Of a stretch of 64,000 nucleotides of DNA, positions 40,330 through 63,969 are shown piece by piece. Made by a program: the position numbers and the translations under genes. Source of the DNA: a virus; the IMG/VR virus record IMGVR_UViG_3300033153_016044, positions 1-64,000 of that record. The stretch is one strand, 5' to 3'. Position 1 is the first letter of the stretch; each line of letters starts with the position of its first letter. The notes beneath the pieces were generated by a model. It was not told the origin of the DNA. It searched no databases and saw only the letters and a program-made list of their open reading frames with translations.

Positions 40330-43300
40330 CTAATTAATAAAACCAGATGGTAATGTGATTGAAAGTAACGGACAAAGAGGGAAGTTGTGAGATGGACATG
40401 CAGAAGAAGAACTTTCGGCAACTATACTTCCGATTAATGTTCCCCAAATTTCAGAACTAGGAAGACCAACACCAGTTAAGTATCCATGAATACTTGTAGT
40501 AATAATTCCACTTACTCCGAATACATAACCATGTATAGATGAAGAATTAAATCCCAACCCACTAGCATAACCATGAATACTACTTGGAATTTCATCAGAA
40601 GCATCGACAAAACCATGAATGGTCATATCGGCAGCTCCACTTAATACATACCCTTTAATAGTTGAGGTTGCAATAGGTGGCCGCTTAACATAGCCATGAA
40701 TAGCTTGCGCGCTAATCTCACCCTTTAGATATCCATGAAGAAAGTTAACACCAGGAACTACATTAGATGTAGATGGGTTACCCACTAGGCCACCACCAGA
40801 AGGAACAAGCCCCTCACTACCTAGATAACCATATATACTAGAGTTGGGATAATTACCCAATAGATATCCATGAACAGATATCGACCCTGACCCAATAGGT
40901 GGCAATACATATCCATAAATAGCCTTTTGGTTTGGACCGAGCCCAAAGATTCCTCCATCCCAACCTTGAGTAAAGCCGTGTCTAAACTTACTAGTAAACT
41001 CTCCAGACTCACCAGCTATATAACCATGAATAAGCTGAGCCCCAGTAAGGCCTTCTAGGTATCCATGAATATTATCTTGACTTGACATATCTCCGGAGCC
41101 AAAGCCTCCGATTAGGAAGCCATCGATTACAGAACTAACACCAGTAGGGTCTACGGGAACATTACCAAATAAATAACTATGAACTTGAGAGGTTGTTAAT
41201 TCATGTCCATGCAAAAACCCATGAATTAAACCAGAGGCTTCTGTTCCAAGACCTACTAAATAACCATCTCTAAATGATTGTTGTGGTAGACCAGACGGAA
41301 TATATCCATGAATAAATTCTGTAGCAATACCAGAACTAATTACATATCCATTTATACTACTTATCTCGAACGGACTTCCACCAGTCAAATATCCATAGCG
41401 CTGATGTCTTGGTCCAAATTCAATATCTACAGGGTCAAGACCGAATACACCATCAATCCAAGCAGCACCATAGGGATATAGAAGTCTGTCAGCAGGAATA
41501 TCATAGACGCCCTTTGTGTATACCCACTTTAAAGTTTGAGCCCCTGCAAGACTAGTAGAAAAAGTTTCTCTTTCTCCAAGTTCAGGAATGTTTGAGTTAA
41601 AAGCATCTAGAGTATGCCAATGCATATCTCCATAAGTTTCTTGAAGAACATTATCTATAAAGAATTCAATCTTATCATCTACGTGAACATCCGAACGTAT
41701 ATAAAATCCAAACTCTCTACCAGCACTGCCGTCTGGTAATCTTTCATCTATATTGACATCAATATCTACTTCCAGAATAGCAGAATGTCCTGGTTGTATT
41801 CCTCCGCTCGGTACTATCCTTAGTGGACTACCCAATCCAGAAGCATCTCCAATAGCCTCGCTTCTTATAGAAAATCCATCATCAGTTCCTCTTTGTGGAA
41901 ATACAAATGACCAAATTCCACTCTGTACAGTTCCATCAAAATCAACTGGAAGAGGAGTAGATGGCAAGAAATTTGTTCTAGTGGCATTACCACTTGCTAC
42001 AATTCCCCATTCAAAATCTCCAGATGTTCTCCAGCCTTCTGGTAGAGTCCCCTGTTCTTGTCTGAATGTTTGTTGTGTAGTTTGTAGTGGGCTTCTTACA
42101 ATCTGTCTGTTATATGGGGGCGGGTCAGAGGTCGAGTTAGACCATGTTACAACTTCTGGATTAGTAGCTGCTGGACCAAATAATTTAATTTCATATACTC
42201 TTGAACTACTTTGTATAGAGTTAAAAAATTGAAGTGTTACAAATTTTGCAGTAAATGGGTTAATGTTAAAAATTGGAACTAGCGATGCTACGTTTAAAGA
42301 TTCTGTAACAGTCTGTGTTCCAGCCATATATTTTTCTAATGAACTATTTTGTGGAGGAAGCGAACTAATTGCACCAGATGGTATTGTAAATAATCTAACA
42401 TGGTTTATTCCATCTAGTGTTCCCGATACAGCTATGCCGGGAGCAGACGTTGTTCCATTTCTTTGTAGTACCTCTACTCTTTCTATAGTTCTAATCTTGT
42501 CTAATTCAAGAGTTAATGTATAGCCATCTCTGACTCTACCATAGGTAGTATTATCATCATCAAAAAGATTAGGAGATTCTTCATAATGAGATGTGAACTG
42601 TACGTTAGTATATGCAGCAATGCCTGTAAAGATTTCATTGGCCGTGCCGGACGTAAGAGTATAGTCAATGGTAAATTCTGATTCTTGCCACCTACCTAAT
42701 GCGGGAGATTGTTCTACATCCCATACTGTTAAGATTCCACCAGAAGGATATGTTGAAACATGTCCCTGCGTAACTAGTAGTTCTTGCTTTGTGCCGCTGG
42801 CACCCGCGGGCTCTGTGGGATGCTTTAGTGCTTTAAATCCTCCCCAGAATAATGTATTGCTCCAGCCTCCAGTTTGAGATTGGCCCACAGATGCAGGATG
42901 TTTAAGACCCTTATCTTGGTCATCCATGGTAGGAAATACCCAGTTGCTTCCATCAAAGTCAGCCTTGAATCTTCCTATTGATTGTTTTCCCCATTCGTTT
43001 TTCTTTTGAAAATAGAATAAGAATTCTCCATCATCATTAAAAGAGAAGTCACAATTAGTTCCTTCTCCTGGGAAGTTATGTCTTGTTACACCTTCTCCTG
43101 AAAAATTATTAGGACCTATACCATACATATCGCCAGTGGGCACAATTCCAGATTGGATTAGTAATCCGCTTGTGCTACCATTAAGACTACCAGCTTTTGT
43201 TACCCAACTATTTTCTGTTCCATTTGCTATATCTTTTACATTTATATATTCATCTGTATCTTCTGTCCAGTGATAAATACTCTGACCTACCCCTCCAATT

Positions 43301-44106
43301 CCAGAAGAGCATACAACGGCCATGCCGTGACTTCCATTGAGTCCGCTGCCAATGGCCATGCTGGGACCAAAGCGCACCTCGTCTGATTCAATAGCTCTCT
43401 CATCAGGAGTTCCAAACCAGCCACCAAAATCTCTATGCCATGTTTTTAGTTCATTATCTTCTGCATCATAGTATGTAGCATACGATGTTTTAAGTCCGAA
43501 GATTTCCGATACATATATAATAGGGAATCCGCCACTTGCACCTGCGGCGATATCTCCAAACTGAAGAGGGTCCAAAGAGGGGGCTACATTATACGGCGTT
43601 CCCAATACGGCAGTAGTCATGTCATTAGCAGAATCTTTGACAATCATTTTTACTGCGGGGAAACTAATGCCGGCTACTTCACTAGCGAACGGATGTTCTT
43701 GCATAGTAAGTGAGCCCTGAAAGCCTTTAGCTAAATTTCCAGAATCACCAGCAGCAACTAGCCCAATAGGACCTATGCCGCTTGCTCTCGTCCAACCACC
43801 GCCTGGTAGCTTACCTACAAACTGATAGCAACCAGAGCCATTAAACCTGAAGCCACAATGTATATGACCACTCCTATCCATTACTGTATCAAAGTTATTA
43901 TGGATATGAAAGTCTTCTACTGGGAATAAAAGCTCAGGAGCACTCCATGATAATCCACCATTAGTAGATGTTATAAAATCAACTTCACTAGTTCCTGAAC
44001 CATAGGCTAGAAATATTTCATCATCATTGGGGTCTTGCCAAAAAGCCCTGCCCCACTGAGGGAGTCTCATATCTTGAGAACCCGTAGTGGCTATTGAAAA
44101 AATCAT
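40330..44106 (-). CDS. Large virion protein (putative fibre/receptor-binding) with C-terminal IHGY repeats
   Basis: Directly after tape measure; Asp-box-like TSTNGGLSW; Gly/Ser-rich; ~21 repeats. Confidence 0.6.
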   Translation of the reverse strand: MIFSIATTGSQDMRLPQWGRAFWQDPNDDEIFLAYGSGTSEVDFITSTNGGLSWSAPELLFPVEDFHIHNNFDTVMDRSGHIHCGFRFNGSGCYQFVGKLPGGGWTRASGIGPIGLVAAGDSGNLAKGFQGSLTMQEHPFASEVAGISFPAVKMIVKDSANDMTTAVLGTPYNVAPSLDPLQFGDIAAGASGGFPIIYVSEIFGLKTSYATYYDAEDNELKTWHRDFGGWFGTPDERAIESDEVRFGPSMAIGSGLNGSHGMAVVCSSGIGGVGQSIYHWTEDTDEYINVKDIANGTENSWVTKAGSLNGSTSGLLIQSGIVPTGDMYGIGPNNFSGEGVTRHNFPGEGTNCDFSFNDDGEFLFYFQKKNEWGKQSIGRFKADFDGSNWVFPTMDDQDKGLKHPASVGQSQTGGWSNTLFWGGFKALKHPTEPAGASGTKQELLVTQGHVSTYPSGGILTVWDVEQSPALGRWQESEFTIDYTLTSGTANEIFTGIAAYTNVQFTSHYEESPNLFDDDNTTYGRVRDGYTLTLELDKIRTIERVEVLQRNGTTSAPGIAVSGTLDGINHVRLFTIPSGAISSLPPQNSSLEKYMAGTQTVTESLNVASLVPIFNINPFTAKFVTLQFFNSIQSSSRVYEIKLFGPAATNPEVVTWSNSTSDPPPYNRQIVRSPLQTTQQTFRQEQGTLPEGWRTSGDFEWGIVASGNATRTNFLPSTPLPVDFDGTVQSGIWSFVFPQRGTDDGFSIRSEAIGDASGLGSPLRIVPSGGIQPGHSAILEVDIDVNIDERLPDGSAGREFGFYIRSDVHVDDKIEFFIDNVLQETYGDMHWHTLDAFNSNIPELGERETFSTSLAGAQTLKWVYTKGVYDIPADRLLYPYGAAWIDGVFGLDPVDIEFGPRHQRYGYLTGGSPFEISSINGYVISSGIATEFIHGYIPSGLPQQSFRDGYLVGLGTEASGLIHGFLHGHELTTSQVHSYLFGNVPVDPTGVSSVIDGFLIGGFGSGDMSSQDNIHGYLEGLTGAQLIHGYIAGESGEFTSKFRHGFTQGWDGGIFGLGPNQKAIYGYVLPPIGSGSISVHGYLLGNYPNSSIYGYLGSEGLVPSGGGLVGNPSTSNVVPGVNFLHGYLKGEISAQAIHGYVKRPPIATSTIKGYVLSGAADMTIHGFVDASDEIPSSIHGYASGLGFNSSSIHGYVFGVSGIITTSIHGYLTGVGLPSSEIWGTLIGSIVAESSSSACPSHNFPLCPLLSITLPSGFIN
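40430..41400 (-). repeat. About 21 degenerate protein repeats, [I/V/R]-H-G-[Y/F]-phi-x-G, mostly ~13-17 aa period
   Basis: RYGY, INGY, IHGY, RDGY, IHGF ... IHGY, IWGT read in translation. Confidence 0.85.
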
Positions 44107-44115
44107 TTAATCATC

Positions 44116-47100
44116 CTATGTAAGGTTGCTTCCGCGAACTCTTGCTTTATTAGGCTTTCCTGTTCTAGGAGAATCCAAAAAGTGAACGAGACTAGCAGAC
44201 CCACCCCTATCTATCTCGGTCTGAACAAGTTTCGAAACAGTCTCAGCAATTACTTCTACCTGGTCTTCAAGTCCAGTTCCTATCAAGGCCTGCACTAGCT
44301 GCTCTGCGAATTCCTCTCCCTTAATTATACTTTCAATCTTAGCATTTAGCTCAAGCTCCATGGGGGCAACATTTACGTCTAGCTGGCCTTCGCTAAGTGC
44401 GGCGCTGAACTGAGTAACCCATAGCTGACAGGCCTCATCGAATTTTTCTTTGAAAGAATTAATAAAGTCTTCACGAGAAGCTTCGTCTATAATTAGCTTA
44501 GCCTGTTGTGCTTCTGCTAATTTCTTTCTTTGAATTGTGTTCTGTGTATGCTGTGCTGCCTGCTCTTGTTTATGTGCACTTGTAGCATTGAATAAGCTAT
44601 CCATCTTTGCATTAAACTGTTGCATAAAGTTTGCCGTCTTCTTTGCTGCATCCACTACTGGCTTATTGGCATCCGCAGTTTGTTGGCCTGCGGCGGCTAT
44701 TGCTGCAGATGTTTTTTCTTGCTGAACCAATAGGTGGTCAATTCCTGCAGAGATAAGAACATTGGGGTCTCTATCATCCGTGATTAGTCCTTCCTTAATA
44801 GCATCAAGCCTTTCTTTCTCTCCCTGCTGTAGTGAATACTGGGCTTTTAATTGCTCTAGGTTTTCTTTAGCAACAACTAGGGCTTCTGCGGTTAGGTTTC
44901 CGAATACTCCCTCTTTTTCAAACTGCCCCTCGTTAACCGAGACGATTCTTTCCATGGCTGCAATCTGTCTAGCTAGGGGGTCGTTCATTACATTAGAAAG
45001 GGCTTGTTCTAGTTTTCCCTTTTCGTCATTGGAAGCCGCTTCTCTAGCAGCATTAATTTCAGCAGCTAATGTTCCAGGAGAAAGAATTTCAGACAGAGCA
45101 GTCTTTAGGTCTGCAGAGCCCTCTCCTCCGTTAGTTTTATCAAGAAGCTCTCCAGCTAGTGCGCTAACTAAGACTTTATTAAAATCTTCTTCACTGTTAA
45201 CTAGTCCAGACCTCTGAGCAATAGCCTCCAGAGCCTTGCTATTAAGCCCAAGGTCATTTGCTAGGACTTCAAATTGACTTCCAAACTTACTTATGTCAGC
45301 ATCAGGGTCAGCTATTCGTGTCTTTATAGCTTCGGCAAAATCAAAGCCAAGCCTCTTAGATAACTGTTCTACGAGGCCACCCTCGTCTACTCTCTTGGCC
45401 TTCTGTGTTGATATGGCTGCTTGTGCTGCTCTAGACAATTCAACCTTTGGTGCTGCGGTGGCTGCTGTTGTTGAAGCCGTTGCTGCGGCTCTTTGGGCGT
45501 CTGCCTTAGAGAGGGTCTCTGCGGCGGCTGCCCTGAGCGCTTCTCCTGCATCCTTTAGTCTTTCATTATTATCTTTAACGGCACCCAGGCTGGTTATTGT
45601 TTTTTCTGCGGCTGCAGCTTGTTCACATGCTGCAGCAAAAGCTTTGTTCGCAGCGGTCGCCTGTGTTTCGGCAGCAACCCTTACGGCAGAGTCTGTTTCA
45701 GAACTAAGTCTTATATCTCCGCTAGCATCTATATTAAATTTTTCTGTTGCTATTCTTTTAATTTCGGCGGCCCCTAATTCTGTACTTATTCTAGCTGCTT
45801 CAGTAGCATTGGCTACGGCTGCTGCACCAGTAGCTAGGCTGGTAGTAAAACCACCCATGGCTTTAATCACGTCAACCCCACCTGTTGCTAGTGATTTTTC
45901 TAGTACTTTGATTCTATCTGCAATAAATGATTTCTTAAAATCTGACTCAAACTGCTCAGTAGTCTTTGCTGTTTCTAGTAGTCTTTTATTAAGCGCTGCG
46001 AATGCATCTTGGGCTTCAAAGAAAACTTTCGCTTCATCATCTGTTAATAAGTTAGGATTTATTCTTCCTTCTTTTAATTCGGTAGCTGCTATAAAAAGCT
46101 TAGCAACTTGAGCAAGAGAATCTCCCGTCCCATCGAGGCCAATCTGTCCACCACTAGCTACTGCAGCTATTGCTGAGGGGATTCCTTTTAGCAATGTTCC
46201 CACATCAAAATCTGTAGCAAGCTTTGATATGGTATTTTGTTGTCCCTCTAGTCTCCCTAATGTTTTAGATAAGTCCTGTAGAATAGCTGCATCTCTTTTT
46301 TGTTGACTACTACGAGATGTTGTCCGAGCCTCTAGTCCTATCGCGAATGCCTTCTTATCGGACTCTCCTACATTTCCCTTTCTAAGAGCAAATAATTCTT
46401 CTAGTGCACGTTTGATTACTGTTGGCTGACCACCAACCTTCACTTCTCTTGCATCCCTAATGTCTTTAAGTAAACTACTTACATTAACTAAAGAAGAAAC
46501 AATTTGTTTATCTCCCTCTGTAGCTTGCGGAATTTTAGTATCGAAACTATCTTTGAGAAGGCTTACTTGAGAGGCCACTTTTTCTAAATTTCTCTTAGTA
46601 TTAGTAGCGTTTGTTATTGCTGTATCAGCAGTTCCTTTTGTTGCAGCTACAATTGAAATTATTCCATCTAACTGCTTCAAGAAGGTTTCACTCTGGTCAT
46701 TCATGAGGCTTGAAATAACTTTTTCTTCATCAAGTAATTTGATTAATTCTAGTTTATTATCTTGTTGAACTTTTATTAGTTCGCTGACTTCATTAAGAAG
46801 GGCTTGTTCCTGAGTAATCTGCTCCTCTAGTAGTTTTGCATTTGGGTTTGCGGCAAGTCTTGCAAACAAAGATGTCAATTGTCCAGGAGTAATTCCTTCT
46901 ACTAGGCTCTTTCCTCTAGACTCTGCGACCTCGAACCCTTCAAAGATAGACTTTAGAGCCTCTCCACCTAGCTGTTTGTTTACCGTAGTAATAATCTTTA
47001 GTAGGCCCTTTTCAATATTGCCGCTATTTACTTTCGCTAATTGCAATACATCTTCAGACTCGAATAGCTTGAGAGAGTTTTCTAGAAACTCCTTTGGTGT

Positions 47101-50100
47101 CTTAATTAATTCTTCGCCAATCTTAACTTCCAAATCTATTCTCTTCTGCATGACGCTTAGCTCTTCTCCAATAAGGCTAATACGTTGTCTAACAAAATCA
47201 TTTTCTGTGCTAAGTAGATTCTTTCGAAGGCTAATCTCAGATTGTGCTAAGTTCTTTTGGACATCCAATAGCTGCTTGCTGGCAGTTATCTGGTCTAGCT
47301 GAAACTTTGTGCTCCTATCTAGGCCATCTTTGAATTGAGCGAATGGTCCACCAACGGCTGCTATGTTTGCCTTTATGCTATCCGCGGCTGCCCCAAGCTC
47401 TTCTAGAGATGGAACAATACCTATCTGTCCGAATTGTCTTTGTAGCAGGTCTCCTGCCTTCTTCGCGCCATCAACTAGTATTTGATTTCTTCGCCTAATA
47501 ATATCTCTTTGTTGCTTAATATTGAGGTCAGTGATATCTCTTACGGCTCCACCAGCAGTAGACTTTTCTGCTGATTTAATTCCCTGCTCTTGTAGCTGGA
47601 ATATATCCTTAAATATATCTGCCTCTCTTCCAATAAGCTCAACGATTTTTGCCTGACTATCTACGAGATTTTTAATCTGCTGATTGGCTGAAGATGAGAT
47701 ACTTTTAAATCTATCTACTTCAGTCTCGGCAACTTGTTCTCTAGCATCTAGGGCGGCCTGTGCTTTATCAAACCTAAAATTAATTACATCCAACTCTATA
47801 TTTGCTAGTTTGTTCTGCAATGCCAATCTGTCTTTTGTTAATTTCTTAACTGTCTGGGCATTTTGATTTTGAGTACCAGCAGAAACAATAGCTAAGGTGA
47901 CTTCACCAATCTGTCGTTTAATAGATTGTTTTTCTATAGCTAGTTGTCTTTCGTCTACTGTTGCGTTTATCTGTGCTTCAATTACTGGAGTAATTGCTAA
48001 GGTTTTATCTAGCGTTGCAAGCTCAGCTTTCTTGAGTAACTCTGAAACTTTACTTAATGTATTCTGCTCTTGCTTTATCTTTGAAATTCTTTCTTCAAAT
48101 TTAATCTGTTCCTCAAGCTGTGCATCCTCTGCTCTCTTTTGTTGAGATAGTATGATATTTAATTTACTCTGTGCTATCTTCTTTTGTTCTATTAAGCCTT
48201 CGGAACTAAGTTGGGCTTCAGTATTTCTTTTAATTCTAATGTCTAAATCTGCAATATCCTTCTGTAGCTGAAGAGATAGCTCCTGTCTTGCTGTAATTTT
48301 TTCTTGACCTTTAGCTTTTTCTTCATCTGCCTTTGCTTGGAGTTCTCTATCTCTTTCAATAGCCTTTCTTACCTTGGCTTTAATTTTTACTTCCTCAAGT
48401 CGTAGTTCATTACCAGCAGAGACCTGAGAGTTATAAGCAGCGGCTGCGCCAACCAGGGCTCCGACAAAAGCACCAATAGGCCCACCGACAGCAAACCCTA
48501 GAAGTCCACCAGTTAAAGCTCCTTGCAAACTAGTCTCTACTTCTTTACCAACATTTCCACCAATCGCTTTTCCAATAATTGGGGCTGCGAATAGGCCAGC
48601 TCCAATAAGGGCGGCTCCGACTCCTGTCTGAATTCTACGAGTACTTTTTCCACCAAGCACCCCTTGTCCACCTCTCACACTTGACTTAAGATTTGATTGA
48701 ATTCCTAGTCTTTGTTCTTCAAGAAGTTTCAATTCTACAGCTAATGCAACCTCTCTTGCTTTTAATTTATTTATATCTCTTTGGTTTACAGACCCAAACT
48801 TTGATATCGCAGCAAGCTCTGCAGCATTAACTACAAGCTCTCTTTCTTTTACAGATATTGCACTAGTTACGCCTACTATTGATGTTCTAAAGCTTAATAT
48901 TTGTTGCTCAGTAAGTAGTCCTTGCGCCCTAGCAGCGTTAGCTCCCTCTAAAAGATTCCCTTCAACTTGTATATTATTTATTATTTTGTCAGTGACTTCT
49001 GCTAGCTTCTGAGATGGCAATAGACCAGCAACAAAACCCTGAGATACAGCCCTTAGGGTAGGAGCTAATGCCGCAAAGGCAGCAGCAAATATTGGAGCAA
49101 CACCGCCTACAATATTAACAAAAGTATCGACGCCGCCTATAACGTCTGTTAATCCTCTGGTTGTAGCCTTTAGAAAACCAATTACTCCAGAATCATTTAC
49201 AAGCCCTTCTAGTGAGGCCTTTAGTTTTCCGAACTCTGCTGTCACAGTTCTTGATTGTGCTTCAGTTTCAGCCAGGAATCTCCTTAGAGTTCTTTCAATT
49301 CTTATGGCTTTAGTTTCTGTATTATTAAGTTTAGCGATGGAATCTTTAACTTCATCAACGTTACGTGCAAGACCAAGAATAACAGAGGCGTTTCTTTCAT
49401 CTGTGAACTGCGAGATAAAATCAATCGCAGACTGTTCACCTTTAAAGGAGTTAATAACCTCTAGAACTTTTACTAGAGCTTCGGGGCCAGCTAGCTGTCC
49501 TTCTTCAATAATATCAATGCCGGCGAACTCTTTAATTTCATCTGCACTCTTAGCGACACCAATGCTTAATTGACGAAGCGTCGTTCCTACTCGGGAGACA
49601 CTTGTCTGTGCAGCGTTAGAAGCTGAAGCCAGGAACTCAAGAGACTCAGCTACTGTAGCGCCCTGCACAGAACTGAAGGCACCACCAACTCTAGTTAGGC
49701 CTTCTGCAAGCTCTCCAGCACTGAAGGCACTTCGCTGAGACACCTCAGCTAGCTGTGCTGCTACAATAACGGCCTCAGAGCCTTCAAGTTGGAACTGGTT
49801 TAGAACAGAGTTCAAATCAGCAGTTAGCTTTTCAGCATTACCAAGTGGACCCTCTAGACGAAGTAGTCCTTCCACGGCCTGTGCGAATGGGTTTAGTTCT
49901 CCCGTCTCAGAAAAAGCCTCTCTGTTTACACGACCGGCAACTAATACAATGTCGGCAAGCTTAGAGACTTCAAGGCCTGTTTCTTTTGCGCGCTCTATCA
50001 AGAGCTTCTGAGTTTGAGCGGCAGCAAGAGTTAGAGCGACATACTGTTCTGTAACATTGTTTAGTCTATCAAAAGAGCCAACGAGAGCACTTGACTCCCC

Positions 50101-53100
50101 CTCTATACTTCCGAATGCTGTTCCTAATCTATTAACGCCAGCAGCAGCTCTATCTAATGTTTCAGGATTGAAGAAGGCAATTCTTGTAACTTGCTCATCT
50201 AGACGTATGATAACCTGAACAGCTTCTCTTAGAGAGCCAATTGCCTGGAAGATAAACGCAGCAGGACTAGCCCAGGCCAGCAATCTATCTGCAGCATTGG
50301 CTGCGGCAAAACCAAACTGGAAGGCAGCTTTCTGTCCAGACGTCATGCTAGCGGTTAGCCTATCTACTCGTGAGTTTGCCTTTCCAATGTTTCCTTGGTG
50401 AGCTTTTAGCTGAGTATTCACAGTAGCAAGATTGGCGTCTTCTTGTTTTAGAATAGAAACGAATTTTTCCTGAGTTTTAACATCTAGTTTCTGCCCAAAG
50501 TTTTGTAGTGACTTTAGGTCAAACGATTGCAGAGGTCCACCACCTCCGACTCTATTGTCTGAGCCCGTGGCTGTGCGACGATTTCTTTTTTCTTGTAGTG
50601 CTGCAGATTCTTGGGTAGCTTTTGCTAGGCGATTTTCTGCAGTAAATATATCATCTTCAGCCCTAACTATTTGTTCTTGCTTTGCTCTTGCTTCATTTGC
50701 AGCTTGCACTTGTTTCGAAAAAGCTACAGCTATTGCAGCCTCAGAAGAAAGGACGGATTCTTCTACGCTAGCTCGTTTAGCTAATAGACCTTCTAATTCC
50801 TGCTCAAGAGCTAATGCATTATCAAAATCAAAGGACTGTATTGAGTCTCGTATTTGATTTCTTAATAGTCCAATCGCCCTTACTAAAGATTGTTGTACGC
50901 CTCTAGCTTCACGATTTCTAGTCTCTGCGAATCTTACAGATTCTGATTGAGCGCCTTCCTCTTGTCTCAAGCCAGCGACCTGAGCACTTAATGCAACTAC
51001 GGCTTCTTTTGAAGCAGCTATAAGCGCAGAATTAACTGATTTTCTTTCTTCATTATTTGCTAGTATTTCCTTCTCTTCTGAAGAAAATGCATTTTGCAAT
51101 CCACCAGCAGCTCTCTTAAACACATCTGCTATAGCACGACCGGCATTAGCTATGGCTCCACCACCAATCTCTCCTGCTAGTTCGCTTGCATTGAAGGCAT
51201 TATTAATTCTATTGACAAGCTCTTGTGCCGCAGTTTCTTCTTTTGCTCTAATGGCAGCTATAGCACTATCTGATTGTGCGCGGTCTCCGGCTGCCTTTTT
51301 AATTTGTCTTCTTAGTGGCTTAGTTACATCATCGACAATCTCCTCACTTAGTCGAGGAAAGTCAGAAGTAATTTTGCTTAGAGCATTTTGTAAAAAGTCA
51401 GGGTCTAACAATTGGCCGGCTTCGCCGCCAGACTCAGCTATTTTACTAGCTAATCTCTTAGCTCCTCTTAGAGCTTCAGCATCTAAGGTTCTAGCAACGT
51501 TCTTACTTTCTTTAGTAAATTCTGTTTCAAAAGTTGTTCCAGCTCTAAGAATAGCTTGTTCAAGTATATCTGAAACATCTACGCCAGCCTGGTCTAAGAA
51601 AGCGATTTGTCCTGGGTCAGTTGCTGCAAGTATATTACGCCTTACAGTAGCGAGACCTTCTTCAAGAGTTTTGAATGGAGCACCATTTACGAACTGTGCT
51701 GCCGCAGCACCGGCTCCTTTCATACCGAACAATGTTCTTTTTAAAGTTTCCGCTAAATCAGCTTGTGCTGATTGAAGCTCTGTACTAGCCGTTTTTTGTA
51801 AGGCTGCACTAGATTCTCCTCTTCTGGAATCTGCTAATTGTTTTGTGCTGTCGGATAGCGCAGTAGTCTGCCTAGCAGCTTCATCTGTTGTAGCTTTAAA
51901 TATAGCCATAGATGAATCAATGTCTGCTACAGCAGTACCTGCCCCATCGACTCCTTCTCTAAAGCTTCTAATAGTTTGCCTAAGGTCTTTTCCAGTATTT
52001 AAAAAAGTTTGTCTGAATAATTTTACACCATCAATTATTTCTTTTTGAGTTCCATCTGGTATAATTCCTCTGACAACATTCTCCGTAGCAGAACTAAAGC
52101 CTACAGCCAGCTCTTCCATCCTCTGTCTTAGCGGCTCAATAGGCCTCGACAGAGTCGAAAGAGACTTGGCCGAATTCAGTAGTTGCTGAATTAGTTCAAA
52201 CTGAGCATCACTTAGCCCCTCTGTTGCACTAGCTCCTTGCCGGATACGATTCGCCTGCGCCAGCAAGTCGTCCTTTAGTAGTTGACCTGCTACCGCTCCA
52301 TCCTCTAGTATTTTATTAAACTTTCTGGACGCATTTCCTAGAGAGCTGGCATCAAGGTCAAAGCCATCCAGAGACTCCGTAGAACCAACGAGTCCTAATC
52401 TAAATCTGACTACAGCCTCGGTTCCCTTCTTTACTTGTTCTTTAAATTGTTCATTTATATCATCGTCTGAGATACCAAGAACAGATGCGCCGCCCGCTGC
52501 AGAATTCCTGGCTTCATCCTCTAGGTTTTTACGAACATCTCTTGTAGCATTAAGTCTGGCAAGAGCCTCATCTTTTGTCTGTATGATAACTACAGCTAAT
52601 GCCTCTTGTGCATCTGCCTGTTTTGTAGCGAGCCTGGCCTGCTCAATGATTGTTGCCTTTGTTTTTCTGACCCCCTCTAGGTTATCAGATATGGCAGCAA
52701 CCATTTCTTGAGTGACCAAGGAGCCATCCCTTAGAGCAAAGAAGATTGCTCGGTCAGCTTCTTCTGCTTTTGTTTGAAAGTTTCTTCTCTCGTTCTGGAG
52801 TCTATTAAGTATCTCTTGACTATTAAGCTGCTCAGAGGATATTGATTTTTGTTTTCTTTGTAGAACAGCAAGGTCAGATTGTAACTGGTTAGCTATATTT
52901 ATTTCTTCAAGTCTCTTCTGCTGCGCCTTTGCAATTAATACTGCAGACCTTTTAACTTGTGCGAACTCATCTTCGCTACCCTCAATGGCGCCTAGCCCAA
53001 GAACAACATCCTCTAGTCCCTGACTTAGTCTTCTAGCTTTTGTGAGCTGCTCTTTAGTTTCCGCAACGAACAACTGTTGGTTGCCTTTTATTTCATTCAG

Positions 53101-54066
53101 TTTGCTATTTAGAGAATCTTGTATTGCATTGAGGTCTGCAGCCTTTCTTACATTTAGGCCCCACTCTTTAGATATTTGTTGAATCTTATTTGTAAGACCA
53201 GCAGTAATAGGTATTTGATTTTCAACTCTAAAGGCATAGGCCTTAGACGCTCTGTTGGCGCGAGTAGCTAGGTCCTCAGCCTCCTTCGCGAGAGAGTTTA
53301 GAGCCCCCTGAGTGGCTGCCCTAGATGTCACTAGAGGAATAATCTCTCTAGCTACAGCTCTAGTCTTAGCCTCTAGCTGAGTTGATAGCTCTACCTCTCT
53401 TTGTCTGTGTATAAGAGCTGCCTTAATAGCTTTCTGTTCAATATCTGTATTAAGGCCCCCTCCGGTATCTAGGGACTCTTGGCGCTCAGGTAAAGAAAAA
53501 CTCTTTAATTTTTGGACTGCTGTTCCTGCTGCCCGAGAAACCTCTACCATATTTTTTGAGGTTGTTCCGAACGCGCTTCTTAGGTCTCCAAAACCTAGGT
53601 TTTCTGTTTGAGCATCTACTGCTGCTAATTTTCCCTGCAGTAAATCAGCCTGTTTCGACAGCCTATCAAAGCTAGCCCGTGCTCTATTTGTAACGCCAGT
53701 AAGTCCACCCTTTGATGCGTTGGCGGCTCTGAGCTGTCTTTGTTCCTCTGCTGTAATAGAAGCACCCTTAGCTTCTAGTTCAGTTATCTTGATTAAATTA
53801 TCGGCCCTCTTAGTCGCTGCGGCCGTAAGCTTGATAGAGGCGTCCTTGGCCTTCTTTGCTACTATCGCTAGCTCAGATTCAATTCCTTTTGACTTAGAGC
53901 TTTTCTGCCCAGACTTTCCACCAGGAGCAAACTTGCCACGTCCTCCTGTCTGAACATCAAGCTTTAGGGGGCGACCAAACTCTTTATCTAGAGCATCCCT
54001 AACGCCCTTAAGGGCACCCTTCGCTAAGTCGAATTCAATAATAAATGGAAGTTTTTCAGCCATCAT
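44116..54066 (-). CDS. Tail tape measure protein (3316 aa)
   Basis: Ala/Leu/Glu-rich helical; TMP core (LNQFQL...AFSAGELAEGLTRVGG..SRVGTTLRQ); GxxxG hydrophobic segments. Confidence 0.9.
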   Translation of the reverse strand: MMAEKLPFIIEFDLAKGALKGVRDALDKEFGRPLKLDVQTGGRGKFAPGGKSGQKSSKSKGIESELAIVAKKAKDASIKLTAAATKRADNLIKITELEAKGASITAEEQRQLRAANASKGGLTGVTNRARASFDRLSKQADLLQGKLAAVDAQTENLGFGDLRSAFGTTSKNMVEVSRAAGTAVQKLKSFSLPERQESLDTGGGLNTDIEQKAIKAALIHRQREVELSTQLEAKTRAVAREIIPLVTSRAATQGALNSLAKEAEDLATRANRASKAYAFRVENQIPITAGLTNKIQQISKEWGLNVRKAADLNAIQDSLNSKLNEIKGNQQLFVAETKEQLTKARRLSQGLEDVVLGLGAIEGSEDEFAQVKRSAVLIAKAQQKRLEEINIANQLQSDLAVLQRKQKSISSEQLNSQEILNRLQNERRNFQTKAEEADRAIFFALRDGSLVTQEMVAAISDNLEGVRKTKATIIEQARLATKQADAQEALAVVIIQTKDEALARLNATRDVRKNLEDEARNSAAGGASVLGISDDDINEQFKEQVKKGTEAVVRFRLGLVGSTESLDGFDLDASSLGNASRKFNKILEDGAVAGQLLKDDLLAQANRIRQGASATEGLSDAQFELIQQLLNSAKSLSTLSRPIEPLRQRMEELAVGFSSATENVVRGIIPDGTQKEIIDGVKLFRQTFLNTGKDLRQTIRSFREGVDGAGTAVADIDSSMAIFKATTDEAARQTTALSDSTKQLADSRRGESSAALQKTASTELQSAQADLAETLKRTLFGMKGAGAAAAQFVNGAPFKTLEEGLATVRRNILAATDPGQIAFLDQAGVDVSDILEQAILRAGTTFETEFTKESKNVARTLDAEALRGAKRLASKIAESGGEAGQLLDPDFLQNALSKITSDFPRLSEEIVDDVTKPLRRQIKKAAGDRAQSDSAIAAIRAKEETAAQELVNRINNAFNASELAGEIGGGAIANAGRAIADVFKRAAGGLQNAFSSEEKEILANNEERKSVNSALIAASKEAVVALSAQVAGLRQEEGAQSESVRFAETRNREARGVQQSLVRAIGLLRNQIRDSIQSFDFDNALALEQELEGLLAKRASVEESVLSSEAAIAVAFSKQVQAANEARAKQEQIVRAEDDIFTAENRLAKATQESAALQEKRNRRTATGSDNRVGGGGPLQSFDLKSLQNFGQKLDVKTQEKFVSILKQEDANLATVNTQLKAHQGNIGKANSRVDRLTASMTSGQKAAFQFGFAAANAADRLLAWASPAAFIFQAIGSLREAVQVIIRLDEQVTRIAFFNPETLDRAAAGVNRLGTAFGSIEGESSALVGSFDRLNNVTEQYVALTLAAAQTQKLLIERAKETGLEVSKLADIVLVAGRVNREAFSETGELNPFAQAVEGLLRLEGPLGNAEKLTADLNSVLNQFQLEGSEAVIVAAQLAEVSQRSAFSAGELAEGLTRVGGAFSSVQGATVAESLEFLASASNAAQTSVSRVGTTLRQLSIGVAKSADEIKEFAGIDIIEEGQLAGPEALVKVLEVINSFKGEQSAIDFISQFTDERNASVILGLARNVDEVKDSIAKLNNTETKAIRIERTLRRFLAETEAQSRTVTAEFGKLKASLEGLVNDSGVIGFLKATTRGLTDVIGGVDTFVNIVGGVAPIFAAAFAALAPTLRAVSQGFVAGLLPSQKLAEVTDKIINNIQVEGNLLEGANAARAQGLLTEQQILSFRTSIVGVTSAISVKERELVVNAAELAAISKFGSVNQRDINKLKAREVALAVELKLLEEQRLGIQSNLKSSVRGGQGVLGGKSTRRIQTGVGAALIGAGLFAAPIIGKAIGGNVGKEVETSLQGALTGGLLGFAVGGPIGAFVGALVGAAAAYNSQVSAGNELRLEEVKIKAKVRKAIERDRELQAKADEEKAKGQEKITARQELSLQLQKDIADLDIRIKRNTEAQLSSEGLIEQKKIAQSKLNIILSQQKRAEDAQLEEQIKFEERISKIKQEQNTLSKVSELLKKAELATLDKTLAITPVIEAQINATVDERQLAIEKQSIKRQIGEVTLAIVSAGTQNQNAQTVKKLTKDRLALQNKLANIELDVINFRFDKAQAALDAREQVAETEVDRFKSISSSANQQIKNLVDSQAKIVELIGREADIFKDIFQLQEQGIKSAEKSTAGGAVRDITDLNIKQQRDIIRRRNQILVDGAKKAGDLLQRQFGQIGIVPSLEELGAAADSIKANIAAVGGPFAQFKDGLDRSTKFQLDQITASKQLLDVQKNLAQSEISLRKNLLSTENDFVRQRISLIGEELSVMQKRIDLEVKIGEELIKTPKEFLENSLKLFESEDVLQLAKVNSGNIEKGLLKIITTVNKQLGGEALKSIFEGFEVAESRGKSLVEGITPGQLTSLFARLAANPNAKLLEEQITQEQALLNEVSELIKVQQDNKLELIKLLDEEKVISSLMNDQSETFLKQLDGIISIVAATKGTADTAITNATNTKRNLEKVASQVSLLKDSFDTKIPQATEGDKQIVSSLVNVSSLLKDIRDAREVKVGGQPTVIKRALEELFALRKGNVGESDKKAFAIGLEARTTSRSSQQKRDAAILQDLSKTLGRLEGQQNTISKLATDFDVGTLLKGIPSAIAAVASGGQIGLDGTGDSLAQVAKLFIAATELKEGRINPNLLTDDEAKVFFEAQDAFAALNKRLLETAKTTEQFESDFKKSFIADRIKVLEKSLATGGVDVIKAMGGFTTSLATGAAAVANATEAARISTELGAAEIKRIATEKFNIDASGDIRLSSETDSAVRVAAETQATAANKAFAAACEQAAAAEKTITSLGAVKDNNERLKDAGEALRAAAAETLSKADAQRAAATASTTAATAAPKVELSRAAQAAISTQKAKRVDEGGLVEQLSKRLGFDFAEAIKTRIADPDADISKFGSQFEVLANDLGLNSKALEAIAQRSGLVNSEEDFNKVLVSALAGELLDKTNGGEGSADLKTALSEILSPGTLAAEINAAREAASNDEKGKLEQALSNVMNDPLARQIAAMERIVSVNEGQFEKEGVFGNLTAEALVVAKENLEQLKAQYSLQQGEKERLDAIKEGLITDDRDPNVLISAGIDHLLVQQEKTSAAIAAAGQQTADANKPVVDAAKKTANFMQQFNAKMDSLFNATSAHKQEQAAQHTQNTIQRKKLAEAQQAKLIIDEASREDFINSFKEKFDEACQLWVTQFSAALSEGQLDVNVAPMELELNAKIESIIKGEEFAEQLVQALIGTGLEDQVEVIAETVSKLVQTEIDRGGSASLVHFLDSPRTGKPNKARVRGSNLT

Positions 54067-56435: not shown

Positions 56436-57569
56436 TTAGCTGAATGTGCTATGAGTAATAGTCAAATCGTTGAAGTTACTATAGTTGTAAGTAACTGTCA
56501 TGTTACCTCCACCAGCTTCACCACCAGCCATGTCAACAGACTGCAGGCGGTTCTTGGTGCCAAGGTTAATGTTCAGCCCCTCACACAAGCAAACAATGAT
56601 TTCTTCATTGACCGTGTTGTTGGTTCTATTACAATCCAAATCCTCAAAAGCGACAGCATCAATGAAGTCACCCTGAGACGTCACAACTTCAACAGAAGTG
56701 GTTACCTCAAGAGGGAATGTAACGAACTTAGTGAATGGTCTCTTCTTGCCAAGCTCGAAGATATCCTCACGACCAAGGTCGCTAGAGATTGTAATGGTCT
56801 GAATGTGCTCAACAATACCAGCCAGTGTTCCAGACGAACTAACGCCAGGAATCTGAGTAGGTAGTCTAGAACAATCTAGGTCAAAGCTCTCACGTCTCTG
56901 AACACCGGAACCAATAACCTGAGCATCCTCTAGGTTCTGGAACTGAAGTCCACCGGGGAAGCCCACGGGAGTAGCAGCATCAGATGCGCCCTCAGCAGGC
57001 AGTGCATCAGCAGCGCCAGTAACACCTTCGTAATCAGCCCAAATCTTATCGTTACCTACCAGAGTAATAGACTCTGTGAAGTTACCATCGACTGGGAAGG
57101 TATAGTTGACGGAACTAATGAACATTCCGGAACCAAGAACCATCGAGATTGGGTTTCCAGAAGCTCTAGTCTGCGTATCAGAATAGATGCTAATTGCGAC
57201 GTCAGTCTGGTAATCAGCAGTTCTATCTGTTAGTAGAGTAGTTCCTCGCTCAGTAGCCATGAACCAAAGAGGTTTCGTTCCATCAAGAACCTTCTCAACG
57301 GTAACCTCAATCTCAGGCTCTGCTTCAATGAACTCATAAATCTCCAACTGACCAAGCTCAAACACTTGCTCAAAGTTGAATGTAGTAGTCATACCAACAG
57401 ACTGTGCTCCACGAGCAACTTCCCAAAGGGGCTGGTTTCTGACTCCCGTAATTTCTACGTCTACGCCAGGCTGGATAACCACAACTTCGTTAGTTGGGTC
57501 GGCTCCACCACCTGCGTTATTTTTAAAGGCCACACTGTGTATGGCATAGAAAACTCTTTGATTTGGAAT
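56436..57569 (-). CDS. Probable major tail tube protein; apparent ATT start
   Basis: AQSVGMTTTFNFEQVFELGQLEIY and duplicated REDIFELG; followed by terminator; GGAG-N8-ATT CCA AAT CAA. Confidence 0.7.
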   Translation of the reverse strand: MPNQRVFYAIHSVAFKNNAGGGADPTNEVVVIQPGVDVEITGVRNQPLWEVARGAQSVGMTTTFNFEQVFELGQLEIYEFIEAEPEIEVTVEKVLDGTKPLWFMATERGTTLLTDRTADYQTDVAISIYSDTQTRASGNPISMVLGSGMFISSVNYTFPVDGNFTESITLVGNDKIWADYEGVTGAADALPAEGASDAATPVGFPGGLQFQNLEDAQVIGSGVQRRESFDLDCSRLPTQIPGVSSSGTLAGIVEHIQTITISSDLGREDIFELGKKRPFTKFVTFPLEVTTSVEVVTSQGDFIDAVAFEDLDCNRTNNTVNEEIIVCLCEGLNINLGTKNRLQSVDMAGGEAGGGNMTVTYNYSNFNDLTITHSTFS

Positions 57570-59242: not shown

Positions 59243-59243
59243 A

Positions 59244-60547: not shown

Positions 60548-60552
60548 AAGGA

Positions 60553-60933
60553 TTACCAGATATCATATCCACAAGTTCTTTTAAGTTTTTCTATTATCAT
60601 TTCTTTTTTGTATGTCGCGCAGGGGCCGTATTCGCTATCAAAGAATTTACTTCTAGCGTCTCCCTTTCCTCTATTATCAAGCGCCTGTTCTCCATCCACA
60701 ACTCTAATGCCGATTTGGTCACTATTTAAATCATAGCTAAAGTCTCTCTGAGATAGTAAGCACTCAGACTGCATTAGAACTAAGTCTTCTAGTGTACCGT
60801 CCTGTGGTGTAATACATCCGGACGCATCAACAACAATTTCATCATTTGTATTAAATAGACACAACTCTCTATTAACTCTTCTTGCGGCCTTCCTTAAGAT
60901 GGCGAGTAGTTGTGCATCACTAAGTCTTGGCAT
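60553..60933 (-). CDS. Putative head-tail connector
   Basis: AAGGAG SD; LSDAQL..IL..AA..V.. helix; position. Confidence 0.5.
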   Translation of the reverse strand: MPRLSDAQLLAILRKAARRVNRELCLFNTNDEIVVDASGCITPQDGTLEDLVLMQSECLLSQRDFSYDLNSDQIGIRVVDGEQALDNRGKGDARSKFFDSEYGPCATYKKEMIIEKLKRTCGYDIW

Positions 60934-61000
60934 CTTGCATCTCCTTTTCTAAATCTTTCGGTAAATTCAGCCATTACTATCCTCTATTCATTTTGTTATT

Positions 61001-63268
61001 TTAAGTTATAGTATTACCATCTGTAAATCCAACTCCCTCAATACTCATTGCAATCATGGTTAATTGACTACCTATAGACGTAGGCGTCATTTCCATAAAA
61101 ATAAAATCTCCTGCATAATAATCAGAAATATCAACTCCTGTAAATTCTGCGACTACAACATTAGACTTATTAGTAGATGGATTTGGCGTTACAATAGGAC
61201 TACTCGGTGGATTAATAGGTGTAAGGGAATCTGTTAGGGCAGCAACACTTATATCTCTTCCTATTGGAACCTTTCCTCCTGCCGGGTCTGCAATAAGATT
61301 TTCAACTGTCTCTGCCGGAACATAAAGCATTTCGATAGTGCTTGTACCACCACTAGAGTGAAAGCCATAATACAACTTTATAGTAACAGGATGGGCCGTA
61401 CATGTTCCTTGTGGTATAATCAGAAAAGACTCAACCGTATCTCCTGTATTATCTAACTTCCCCTTTTCAAGCTTCTGGTTCCACCCTGTCCCTCCTGCTC
61501 CTAAATCAATATCACTATTAGTTAAATTAGTGCCTTGCCACTTTACCTGAGATACATCAACATTTTTCGTCCACATAGCAAGACCTTTAGCTAAACGATT
61601 ACCTCGATTATTAATCGTTGTATGAGAAGGTATCAGCTTCATCCTTTCAAGTACAGGTGCTGTAGTTATGGTAGTGGCAATTCTTACACGCATCCAGTGA
61701 CCTAAAGTTCCGTTAATAGTCGTCTCAGGCCAAGTAGTACTCCCATCAATTCCTACAAATATTGATTCATCGCTACTTGCTCTAATAAATACATTATTAG
61801 CATATCTATACCCTTCTTCATTACTTACCGCCATTACATTAATTTCTGTCCAAGTATTTGCTGCTGTTTGAATTTCCCAAATATAAGTTCCACCAACACC
61901 TGCAATAGTTTGGTCTAACTCAACTCCCCAGGATTTAAGTTTATTCCCCGTATTATCTGTCCGGTTAGTACACCAAAGAATGCTGTGCCCCGCCGTTAAG
62001 CCTTGAAAAGAAAAAGTAGAACCCGACTTGCTTTCTGCTTCTACTGATTCATCAACAAACGTACTTCCATTATTACTTGGACTTGCTGTATTATCAGTTG
62101 TTAACACGGTATTATTTTTAGAATAGCTAATTCCCTCTCCAGCACTCCATCCACTTCCAAACTCTGGATGACCGATGGCCATCTTTGCTCCCCACAATTG
62201 CCAAGTAGCATTTTCTGTGTCATCAGACTTAGTAAAAAATGTCCATGCGTGGTCAGCATCAAACCATGTATCAGGAATACTAAACTTTGGCTCCATATGG
62301 AGAGATAGACGAACAGTACCCGTAGCTCCTGTTAATCCTGAATCAATAAGAATATTAAAGGTAGATGCTTCAAATAAACCCCCCGTTACTCGCACGTCCG
62401 CAGAATTATCTGAAATGCGAAGGGCATTTGTCATATTAAATAGGTTAACACCAATACCAATAAATATAGCGTCCAACACTTGTACGCCAGTTGTTATTGT
62501 TGGGGCTCCCATATTAGGATGAATGATTTGTCCTCTTGCTCCACCACTAAGCCTAATACCTACTGCCACTGCTCCAGCAGTTCCGGGTACATGGCACGAA
62601 TCAAGTGCTAGAACACCCGCAGTAGCCTCAATGATAGCATCACAATCTCCGGTCCCGTATCGAACTTCACTTGCGATAAGTTTGCCCGCGCCACTAAGCC
62701 GCAAACCAACACCATTCGCACCAGCGCCATTCAATGTTATATTTAATATCGTAGCAACCCCGGCAGCAGCAGTCACGGATACCGCTGGCACTGCATCAGT
62801 TGTCATCGTAACTGTGAATCCGTCTAACTTTCCTCCTGCGGCTACTGTCACCCTAGTTCCAGTAACTGCCGCACCGCTAATAGTGGTAACCGTCCAGCCA
62901 CCCTCAGACTGCAATACGACATCAGTAGGAACACTTAAGCCGCTCTCAGCGTATGTGCCTGGTCTCACGATTACAGCATCACCAGGCGCAGCAGCAGCAA
63001 GCGCGGCGGCAATCGTCAAATACGGAAGGTCAAGCCGATTAGGTAATGCTGTTCCATTATCTCCAGCCTTGTCTACCCAATTGATATTCGTAGTGGTTAA
63101 AACTGCAGTGGCTATTACTCCCGTTAAAGAAGCTTGGTCCACAAACGTTGGATTATTTTGGTCACTCCAAGCAAGCACTTGGCCTGGCCCTCCAACAACT
63201 ACAGTAGTACTATCACCATCTGTGAATGCCATTAGTCCACTAGTTGCGCTTTCTCCTTGCCATGTCAT
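61001..63268 (-). CDS. Putative fibre/spike protein with beta-helix-like domain
   Basis: PYLTIAAALAAAAPGDAVIVRPGTYAE cap motif typical of right-handed beta-helices; ATG at 63268 (TAATG overlap). Confidence 0.65.
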   Translation of the reverse strand: MTWQGESATSGLMAFTDGDSTTVVVGGPGQVLAWSDQNNPTFVDQASLTGVIATAVLTTTNINWVDKAGDNGTALPNRLDLPYLTIAAALAAAAPGDAVIVRPGTYAESGLSVPTDVVLQSEGGWTVTTISGAAVTGTRVTVAAGGKLDGFTVTMTTDAVPAVSVTAAAGVATILNITLNGAGANGVGLRLSGAGKLIASEVRYGTGDCDAIIEATAGVLALDSCHVPGTAGAVAVGIRLSGGARGQIIHPNMGAPTITTGVQVLDAIFIGIGVNLFNMTNALRISDNSADVRVTGGLFEASTFNILIDSGLTGATGTVRLSLHMEPKFSIPDTWFDADHAWTFFTKSDDTENATWQLWGAKMAIGHPEFGSGWSAGEGISYSKNNTVLTTDNTASPSNNGSTFVDESVEAESKSGSTFSFQGLTAGHSILWCTNRTDNTGNKLKSWGVELDQTIAGVGGTYIWEIQTAANTWTEINVMAVSNEEGYRYANNVFIRASSDESIFVGIDGSTTWPETTINGTLGHWMRVRIATTITTAPVLERMKLIPSHTTINNRGNRLAKGLAMWTKNVDVSQVKWQGTNLTNSDIDLGAGGTGWNQKLEKGKLDNTGDTVESFLIIPQGTCTAHPVTIKLYYGFHSSGGTSTIEMLYVPAETVENLIADPAGGKVPIGRDISVAALTDSLTPINPPSSPIVTPNPSTNKSNVVVAEFTGVDISDYYAGDFIFMEMTPTSIGSQLTMIAMSIEGVGFTDGNTIT

Positions 63269-63969
63269 TAGATTATATTCCACTCCGTTCCGTTCCACAG
63301 AAGACAGTATGCCTGATAATTCTGTGCTAACAGAACCGTAGATACTCCATCTATAGTAACTCCACTACTGGGGGCTATAGTTATATTATTAGTATTTGCA
63401 CTACCGTCTCCATCTTTGATTATTAATTCTTGTCCGAAGAGTGGAACGCTAGGTAGATTTACGGTTGTAGGACCACCTGTCTTTACTATTACTCTATTAT
63501 TATCTGAATCTAGATTTATTATAGTTCCAGATGTAAAAATTTCTATCTCATTTGAAGGCTTCTTCCACTGTAGAAAATTTCCACTTGAGATACCGAGGAA
63601 CTGCCCAGGTATTCCAATTGGAAATCTTAACCACGATGGCCCTGCTCCAGACGCAACAATTATATCTCCAACTACAGGAGATGCCACCACTGTATCAAGG
63701 TGAACAGAAGATAGTAGATTATGTGGACCAATTCCACTAGCGCCTGCACCAGATGCAGACGGAGCCCACTGACTTCCATCAAACGTCAGTACATCACCAA
63801 ACACAGGGATGGCAGTAGAAACTGACTGCCCCTGTAGTCCAATGACTAGTAAATTATCTATAGGACCAGTAACATCTCCGTTAGGAAATTCCCAATCTGT
63901 TCTTGCAATACCTCCGCCAATATTGATGGTCCAAAAAGCACCACTTGGAGCGTACCCTGCCCAGGACAT
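63268..63969 (-). CDS. Putative virion fibre/decoration protein
   Basis: GAGGAGG SD; GDVLTFDGSQWAP; TVNLP...GQELIIKD..G.A.TNNITI...IDG...WNII C-terminal module. Confidence 0.6.
   Translation of the reverse strand: MSWAGYAPSGAFWTINIGGGIARTDWEFPNGDVTGPIDNLLVIGLQGQSVSTAIPVFGDVLTFDGSQWAPSASGAGASGIGPHNLLSSVHLDTVVASPVVGDIIVASGAGPSWLRFPIGIPGQFLGISSGNFLQWKKPSNEIEIFTSGTIINLDSDNNRVIVKTGGPTTVNLPSVPLFGQELIIKDGDGSANTNNITIAPSSGVTIDGVSTVLLAQNYQAYCLLWNGTEWNII

Follow-up and report, generated by a model that had tools for sequence, protein, structure and literature searches.

Serine followed by glycine (SG) is more frequent than expected in the predicted tail and fibre proteins of an uncultured large phage, known from the 97.7-kb IMG/VR record IMGVR_UViG_3300033153_016044 (CheckV completeness 62%). 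The window we analysed is the first 64 kb of this record. We interpret the excess as mainly a structural signature, a conserved tight turn at the end of beta-strands, and put the probability of this reading at about one half. The part of the signal that is specific to the clade is not plain SG but the longer motif [A/P]-S-G-[I/L/V/T/A]. A first-pass annotation had contrasted SG with the reversed dipeptide GS by hand counts and had proposed SG as the acceptor motif for the products of a glycosyltransferase (GT) island in the same window.

Ser-Gly excess in the tail and fibre module

The expected numbers of SG and GS were computed from the amino acid composition. Significance was assessed by shuffling, for the 1258-aa tail protein with 20,000 shuffles plus shuffles inside blocks of 60 amino acids (aa), and ratios of observed to expected counts are given below as multiples (x). 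An exact recount showed that the hand counts had been accurate, including the 308-aa protein named as an exception to the trend (Table 1). After correction for composition the excess stood for the 1258-aa tail protein (p = 1.5e-4, z 4.15; p = 4e-4 within 60-aa blocks) and for the pooled module. It was nominal only for the 233-aa small fibre (p = 0.02) and was not significant individually for the 662-aa protein or the tail tube candidate. The 1258-aa protein remained significant after correction for 57 open reading frames (ORFs) and was the only single protein to do so. A global or local composition artefact was ruled out for this protein, as both types of shuffle gave p below 5e-4.

For the pooled analysis we combined the 24 proteins of the tail and fibre module, from position 34115 to genome position 73100, leaving out the tape measure. 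We counted 132 SG against 81.5 expected (1.62x, Poisson p 1.7e-7), compared to 88 GS (1.08x). Without the 1258-aa protein the SG ratio was still 1.55x, and for the other 66 ORFs of the genome we obtained 0.97x for SG and 0.92x for GS. We then used the whole genomes of two distant relatives, G003 and G005 (177 kb with terminal repeats, and 167 kb), whose orthologues of the 1258-aa protein are 25-28% identical to it. Their tail modules showed SG ratios of 1.78x and 1.96x at a GS ratio of 1.0x, and the SG ratio was 1.17-1.18x elsewhere in these genomes. The reversal that had been reported for the tape measure is present in this phage but was not kept in the two relatives, where SG reached 1.15x and 1.11x and hence showed no depletion. 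The identity of the 365-aa protein as a candidate tail tube rests on gene position, its Pfam and PHROG matches being weak; its orthologues in the two relatives each have 7 SG, against 3.7 and 2.8 expected.

Table 1. Ser-Gly (SG) and Gly-Ser (GS) counts and positions of the features discussed. Positions refer to the window unless marked as genome positions; expected values are for SG.
Feature	Position	Strand	SG	GS	Expected	[A/P]SG	Remarks
1258-aa tail protein	40330-44106	-	32	17	16.9	13	main carrier of the signal
233-aa small fibre	63268-63969	-	7	2	3.0	4	T4 gp9/gp10-like C-terminal domain
662-aa tail protein	38333-40321	-	7	3	4.4	3	
365-aa candidate tail tube	56436-57533	-	4	2	2.4		
308-aa protein			2	3	1.2		
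3316-aa tape measure	44116-54066	-	8	13	16.4		internal control
600-aa and 802-aa tail proteins	34115-38325	-				0	no SG excess; 802-aa protein Gly/Ser-rich
765-aa structural protein	61001-63298	-	9		6.5	0	Gly-rich
341-aa protein	beyond window		12	7	5.3		
901-aa protein	beyond window		18	16	9.5		
Major capsid protein, 333 aa	genome 73496-74497	-	0	0			phrog_2522
GT island	1-19384	-					Pfam: GT2 and GT4 genes, UDP-GlcNAc 2-epimerase, RmlC/RmlD-like and SDR enzymes
545-aa GT	17747-19384	-					largest GT of the island
Trypsin-like peptidase and von Willebrand factor A protein	6442-7323 and 12526-13230	-					among the GT genes
Fibre-like gene cluster	genome 63995-73027						between capsid and connector genes
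113-aa protein	genome 68248-68589	-					tandem duplication

Extended motif

The residues around the SG sites of the module are distinctive. At the position before SG we found an enrichment of A (3.0x), P (2.7x) and G (1.6x); S and T were not enriched. The context [A/P/S/T]-S-G noted in the first-pass annotation is therefore right for A and P and wrong for S and T. After the Gly the sites favoured I, L, V, T and A (N was also enriched), and the positions -2 and -3 were hydrophobic. For [A/P]SG the ratios in the tail modules of this phage, G003 and G005 were 4.6x, 3.8x and 3.4x, compared to 0.8x in the rest of this genome. Adding the following residue raised the contrast: [A/P]SG[ILVTA] reached 7.3x, 5.5x and 6.0x in the three modules and 1.2x in the rest of this genome. 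The control GS[A/P] was flat with 0.3-1.1x. Ser was strongly preferred in the motif, followed by Thr, and Asp and Asn were not enriched. For [A/P]TG we obtained about 1x in the modules of this phage and G003 and 1.6x in that of G005.

In a scan of all tripeptides ASG was the top non-repeat tripeptide with 28 occurrences against 5.75 expected (z 9.3), followed by PSG (z 5.9), and ASG remained at the top when the 1258-aa protein was left out. No SG-containing tripeptide was among the top 12 of the baseline scan. The strongest carriers of [A/P]SG are the 1258-aa protein (1.8 expected), the 901-aa protein (9 against 1.0) and the 233-aa protein (0.4 expected); further carriers are the 662-aa, 341-aa, 143-aa and 494-aa proteins. 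The motif does not occur in the 600-aa, 802-aa and 765-aa tail proteins or in the capsid, portal and scaffold proteins. A motif at the level of the DNA was ruled out. The Ser and Gly codons at SG sites follow general usage, with both Ser codon classes in normal proportion, and the 43 [A/P]SG sites are encoded by 31 different 9-mers, so that the signal must lie at the protein level.

Fold of the 1258-aa protein and conservation of its Ser-Gly sites

The AlphaFold2 model of residues 1-1200 of the 1258-aa protein is all-beta with a mean predicted local distance difference test score (pLDDT) of 64. Residues 1-890 mostly score above 70, the exceptions being a few short loops, and the score drops below 50 in the IHGY repeats. 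The predicted layout comprises a sialidase-like beta-propeller (~1-470), a CBM32/discoidin domain (~471-650), a third beta domain and the IHGY repeats at the C-terminus. Mapping SG onto a predicted structure, as the first-pass annotation had suggested, placed the sites in coil and at strand ends. Assigned with DSSP, 15 of the 21 SG serines in the well-modelled part lie in coil and 11 lie 0-2 residues past the end of a strand. All three globular domains contribute to the excess (13 SG against 6.0 expected, 3 against 1.1 and 5 against 2.0), and in the propeller SG recurs roughly every 55-70 residues. The IHGY repeats were ruled out as its source, with 11 SG against 8.4 expected. These ~360 residues of repeats could not be folded by AlphaFold2 as a monomer.

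The top Foldseek matches of the model are sialidases, the nearest being the large form from Micromonospora viridifaciens (PDB 1EUT/2BER, E ~1e-11), and profile matches to the PDB identified an Asp-box, aligned to NanC, and a CBM32 domain. The protein resembles GH33 sialidases with CBM32 in having a propeller followed by a galactose-binding-like domain, and the propeller is six-bladed with an Asp-box. An R-L-P near its N-terminus presumably corresponds to the RIP (FRIP-like) motif of sialidases. It differs from them in that it is only ~10% identical, has an extra third domain and the IHGY repeats, and is a predicted phage tail protein whose gene adjoins that of the tape measure. It may be a receptor-binding or receptor-destroying protein of the tail tip, judging by the modelled fold.

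In order to study the conservation of the sites we collected homologues of the 1258-aa protein. There were 32 in a set of 5.8 billion proteins, and a set of 1.84 billion yielded 33 full-length representatives (50% clustering). A profile search of the latter set returned no full-length homologue outside this family. SG outnumbered GS in 33 of 33 representatives; the SG ratio ranged from 1.70 to 3.02 with a median of 2.03, and the median for GS was 0.98. In an alignment of 30 sequences 12 SG columns were conserved in at least 80% of the sequences and 23 in 30-80%, with nearly invariant Gly columns. The corresponding numbers were 1 and 6 for GS, 0 and 8 for DG, 0 and 4 for NG and 0 and 6 for TG. 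In rare columns SG and GS were about equally frequent with 10.2 and 11.1 per sequence. Thus the dipeptide excess stems from fixed positions and not from continual gain. The invariant Ser37-Gly38 aligns with the Asn-Gly hairpin turn before an Asp-box of pneumococcal NanC. Asp or Asn takes the place of Ser at some sites of the family, though at none of the 12 conserved ones.

In other families the conservation of SG (33%) was close to that of DG (38%), with GS at 13%. In the family of the 233-aa and 284-aa fibres the N-terminal Ser9-Gly10 is the only SG that is invariant among the four relatives of the 233-aa protein. Elsewhere in these fibres SG is matched by DG, NG, PG, AG or GG, as would be expected of ordinary x-Gly turns. 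The 662-aa protein shares five of its seven SG with its orthologues in the two distant relatives.

Ser-Gly bias in proteins without glycosyltransferase islands

We next compared the module with proteins from other sources. The SG ratio was 0.97 for the tail proteins of SPP1, 1.08 for the tail and virion proteins of T4, 1.29 for the tails of both T5 and the Bacillus phage Basilisk, 1.46 for lambda and 1.56 for Mu. Pooled over these six reference phages it was 1.22 (GS 1.08). BNR/Asp-box propellers gave 1.54x for SG and 0.96x for GS; this set came from a profile search, shares only the fold and is probably cellular, the library naming no source. For giant beta-rich proteins the values were 1.55x and 1.14x. 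SG exceeds GS in Mu, lambda, T5, the propellers and the giant beta-rich proteins, all without protein-directed GT islands.

As phage tails and cellular propellers both show it, a preference of about 1.5x for Ser in front of Gly is general to beta-rich proteins rich in Gly and Ser. It follows that SG-versus-GS counts alone cannot call glycosylation sequons. The first-pass annotation had held that an excess of equal size in GT-less relatives would speak against its proposal. In comparable proteins from sources without the GT island we found an excess for plain SG, up to about 1.5x, but not for the extended motif. GT-less relatives were not available for this comparison among the nine related IMG/VR records, the two without an island being fragments. 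If the motif is a turn and nothing else, it is an ordinary trait of beta-rich tail proteins, and the lesson is that SG-versus-GS contrasts are unfit for sequon calls.

Comparison of explanations

The preferred reading assigns the motif to the fold. The tail and fibre proteins of the clade would be all-beta and rich in Gly and Ser, consisting of propellers, beta-sandwiches and hairpin-repeat fibres. A hydrophobic strand would be closed by a short [Ala/Pro/Gly]-Ser-Gly turn, after which the next hydrophobic strand would begin. The Gly would give backbone freedom and the Ser hydroxyl may cap the turn, as general knowledge of turns suggests. Textbooks describe a type I turn as made up of Pro or Ala and then a small residue with a hydroxyl group; type I beta-turns and hairpins prefer Pro or Ala at i+1, Ser, Asp or Asn at i+2 and Gly at i+3. 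Such turns would be part of the fold, therefore conserved in position, and would in this way produce the excess. The milder bias (~1.2-1.5x) would be general in beta-rich tail and surface proteins, and the clade would have fixed an unusually uniform version of it.

We favour the strand-end turn because of the location of the sites, their hydrophobic flanks, their positional conservation and the generic SG bias in proteins from GT-less sources. Two further reasons are that x-Gly dipeptides interchange in the small fibres and that the head proteins lack the motif. The likeness to a type I turn is close: the sites lie between strands, at strand ends, the Gly is kept, A or P precedes the Ser, and in the small fibres the Ser interchanges with Asp, Asn and Pro. 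The motif departs from it in its preference for Ser over Asp and Asn, and in being 3-4 times denser than in the tails of the six reference phages or in cellular proteins of the same fold.

Several observations weigh against a turn as the full explanation. Outside the clade the motif is far weaker, as [A/P]SG reached only 1.6x in the six reference phages and 1.35x in the BNR propellers. For [A/P]SG[ILVTA] the reference phages again gave 1.6x, and the propellers had none against 5.9 expected. A pure turn should favour Asp and Asn, but in the clade [A/P]DG was found at 0.3-1.0x and [A/P]NG at 0.5-0.8x. In the 1258-aa family [A/P]TG reached 2.6x, Thr was the commonest replacement of Ser at SG columns (91 of 310), and Asn occurred there at half its frequency in the remaining Ser columns. 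Both the 1258-aa and the 901-aa protein carry the motif without detectable sequence homology to each other. Finally, lineage-specific [A/P]SG sites numbered 3.7 per sequence compared to 1.6 for the reversed control, and 1.9 compared to 0.8 in the well-aligned N-terminal part. The strand-end turn does not account well for the several-fold density of one uniform version in this clade only, for the preference of Ser and Thr over Asp and Asn, or for the finding that proteins without a common origin carry the same motif. All three features would be expected if something phage-specific reads the motif, and the GT island is the obvious candidate.

In the strongest alternative the island encodes a cytoplasmic protein O-glycosyltransferase with a preference for Ser, and [A/P]-S-G-hydrophobic would be its acceptor signal. 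We consider this possible, though we would not expect it to prove correct. This enzyme would start the glycan, and other GTs and methyltransferases would extend it on the strand-end loops of tail-tip and fibre proteins during assembly, leaving the head unmodified. The specificity of the motif for clade and module, the hydroxyl preference and the selection at the protein level described above all fit this proposal. Furthermore, the motif co-occurs with the island, which is conserved in all seven relatives with enough sequence. The island is present in seven of the nine related IMG/VR records, including both near-complete genomes; the other two are fragments with an estimated completeness of 24-32%. 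Pfam scans of the island genes named no exporter.

Ser-Gly is the site of proteoglycan xylosylation in eukaryotes, where the Ser is strict, the flanks are acidic and the sequence is often G-S-G. The analogy with this system, drawn in the first-pass annotation, fails at the flanks, since acidic residues are not enriched and the surroundings are hydrophobic and Ala or Pro. Ser-Gly with a preference for Ser is what the two have in common, and no xylosyltransferase-type enzyme was seen, although none was searched for.

A closer precedent for an acceptor is TibC, which heptosylates serine, not threonine, in the beta-helix loops of TibA, including Ser-313 in an N-S-G-G turn (PMC4358343). The logic would resemble the heptosylation of beta-helix autotransporters by TibC/AAH, with unrelated enzymes. 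As in TibA and AIDA-I the modification would take place in the cytoplasm and the residue would be a loop serine in an all-beta protein with Ser preferred over Thr, a pattern that here comes from sequence and DSSP. The differences are that the targets would be phage tail proteins instead of autotransporters, and that a dodecameric heptosyltransferase of the GT9 type was not found: with Pfam at E up to 0.001-0.01 the GTs among the island ORFs belonged to the GT2 and GT1/GT4 families only, with no match to GT9/BAHT. A second precedent comes from mycobacteriophages, whose virions are O-glycosylated by phage GTs according to the account of Freeman et al. 2023 cited in PMC12619734. For Che8, Corndog and Myrna the same account places the glycans at the C-termini of capsid and tail tube subunits (PMC12619734, citing Freeman et al. 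2023). Phage GTs are likewise present here and no exporter was named, while any sugars on our proteins are hypothetical. Unlike in the mycobacteriophages, acceptor sites at the C-termini of capsid and tube were not seen, as the capsid protein has no SG and the four SG of the tube candidate are not C-terminal. In Che8 itself the capsid and tail tube proteins (5051-5872 and 7613-8422) have Gly-Ser as their last residues (…T-G-S and …D-G-S), and [A/P]SG is absent from the three Che8 proteins that we checked. A literature search on glycosylated phage tail fibres returned nothing relevant.

Other results speak against an acceptor. Plain SG above GS is generic. Many of the sites stay invariant even at 25% sequence identity, and all of the dipeptide excess is found in conserved columns; a shield under pressure to diversify would not usually behave in this way. 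The motif is missing from the capsid, the portal and three large tail proteins, and the small fibres freely swap the Ser for D, N, P or A. Among the GTs of the island, which are generic GT2/GT4 enzymes, we recognised none from a family known to modify proteins. For three of them the PDB neighbours were chondroitin synthase, GalT1, SpsA and an inositol-phosphate GT, which are enzymes of the polysaccharide or elongating kind and not diagnostic of a protein acceptor. The island could instead target DNA or lipid-linked host glycans. We regard it as rather unlikely that the motif is an acceptor code written by the phage, in which a soluble, Ser-preferring enzyme of the GT2/GT4 island, unrelated to the known protein-modifying families, would lay down a tail-specific glycan coat on the sialidase-like tail-tip protein and the fibres. 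If it were true, phage virion glycosylation would have its first sequon that can be read from sequence. A large GT island without exporter would then be tied to specific tail proteins, and glycosylated tails would become predictable from metagenomes.

It is improbable that shared ancestry and internal repeats produced the excess as an artefact. In that case the blades of the propeller, the IHGY repeats and the paralogous small fibres would each have inherited a unit with SG, the counts would not be independent, and selection for the motif as such would not be required. Some of the data agree with this: the 486-aa and 494-aa paralogues share SG sites, the 233-aa, 284-aa, 165-aa, 143-aa and 341-aa proteins have domains in common, the spacing of SG in the propeller is regular, and the three genomes compared are related. 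The IHGY repeats, however, add little, the three globular domains accounting for the excess. Moreover the 1258-aa and 901-aa proteins, which are not detectably homologous, each have 9-13 [A/P]SG, ASG is the top tripeptide even without the former, and lineage-specific [A/P]SG sites are above the controls.

Asn-Gly and Asp-Gly are the dipeptides most prone to deamidation and isoaspartate formation. A substitution of Ser for Asn or Asp ahead of Gly, favoured by the chemical stability that it would lend to a long-lived environmental virion, is nevertheless very improbable, because although the tail module of the clade combines high SG with NG at 0.95x and [A/P][D/N]G at 0.3-1.0x (reference phages: NG 1.20x, [A/P]DG 1.42x), DG overall is not avoided (1.22-1.37x), and the Ala or Pro at -1 and the hydrophobic residue after the Gly are left unexplained.

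Genome context and further observations

All long ORFs of the window are on the minus strand. The minus-strand order starts beyond the window with the terminase, portal, scaffold and major capsid protein genes, followed by a Gly/Ser-rich fibre-like cluster (genome 73027 down to 63268) and by connector and tube genes. The tape measure and the tail proteins of 1258, 662, 802 and 600 aa come next, then replication genes and the GT island. We searched 50,697 phage records with megablast, and with tblastn using the 1258-aa protein, and found no cultured relative. The terminase is ~26% identical to those of Bacillus Basilisk-like phages and Microcystis MaeS. The only match of the 341-aa protein in the phage records was a stretch of 68 residues in a mycobacteriophage.

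Serine makes up an unusually low 2.7% of the major capsid protein, whose orthologues in the two relatives have 0-1 SG and 0-1 GS. The tape measure is much longer than its orthologues in these relatives, which have 1846 and 2220 aa (G003 has another ORF, of 585 aa, that matches it as well). Provided that the usual length rule applies, tails within the clade would differ greatly in length. The fibre-like cluster encodes proteins of 284, 165, 901, 113, 486, 494, 341 and 143 aa. Several of them have a T4 gp9/gp10-like C-terminal domain in common, and the 486-aa and 494-aa proteins are paralogues. The two relatives have fewer genes of this cluster. In the 113-aa protein we observed an exact tandem duplication of the 17-residue unit E-A-G-T-I-Y-Q-P-L-T-A-I-E-E-A-L-G.

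The methyltransferases of the GT island are of the C-type and FkbM-type. A search with its best-conserved GT2 returned only members of the same clade and no other phage lineages. The 545-aa GT has a C-terminal DUF4214 and ~300 N-terminal residues without a family match; every relative with the island has kept this DUF4214 GT, at a length of 545-580 aa. The genes of a trypsin-like peptidase and of a von Willebrand factor A protein also lie among the GT genes.

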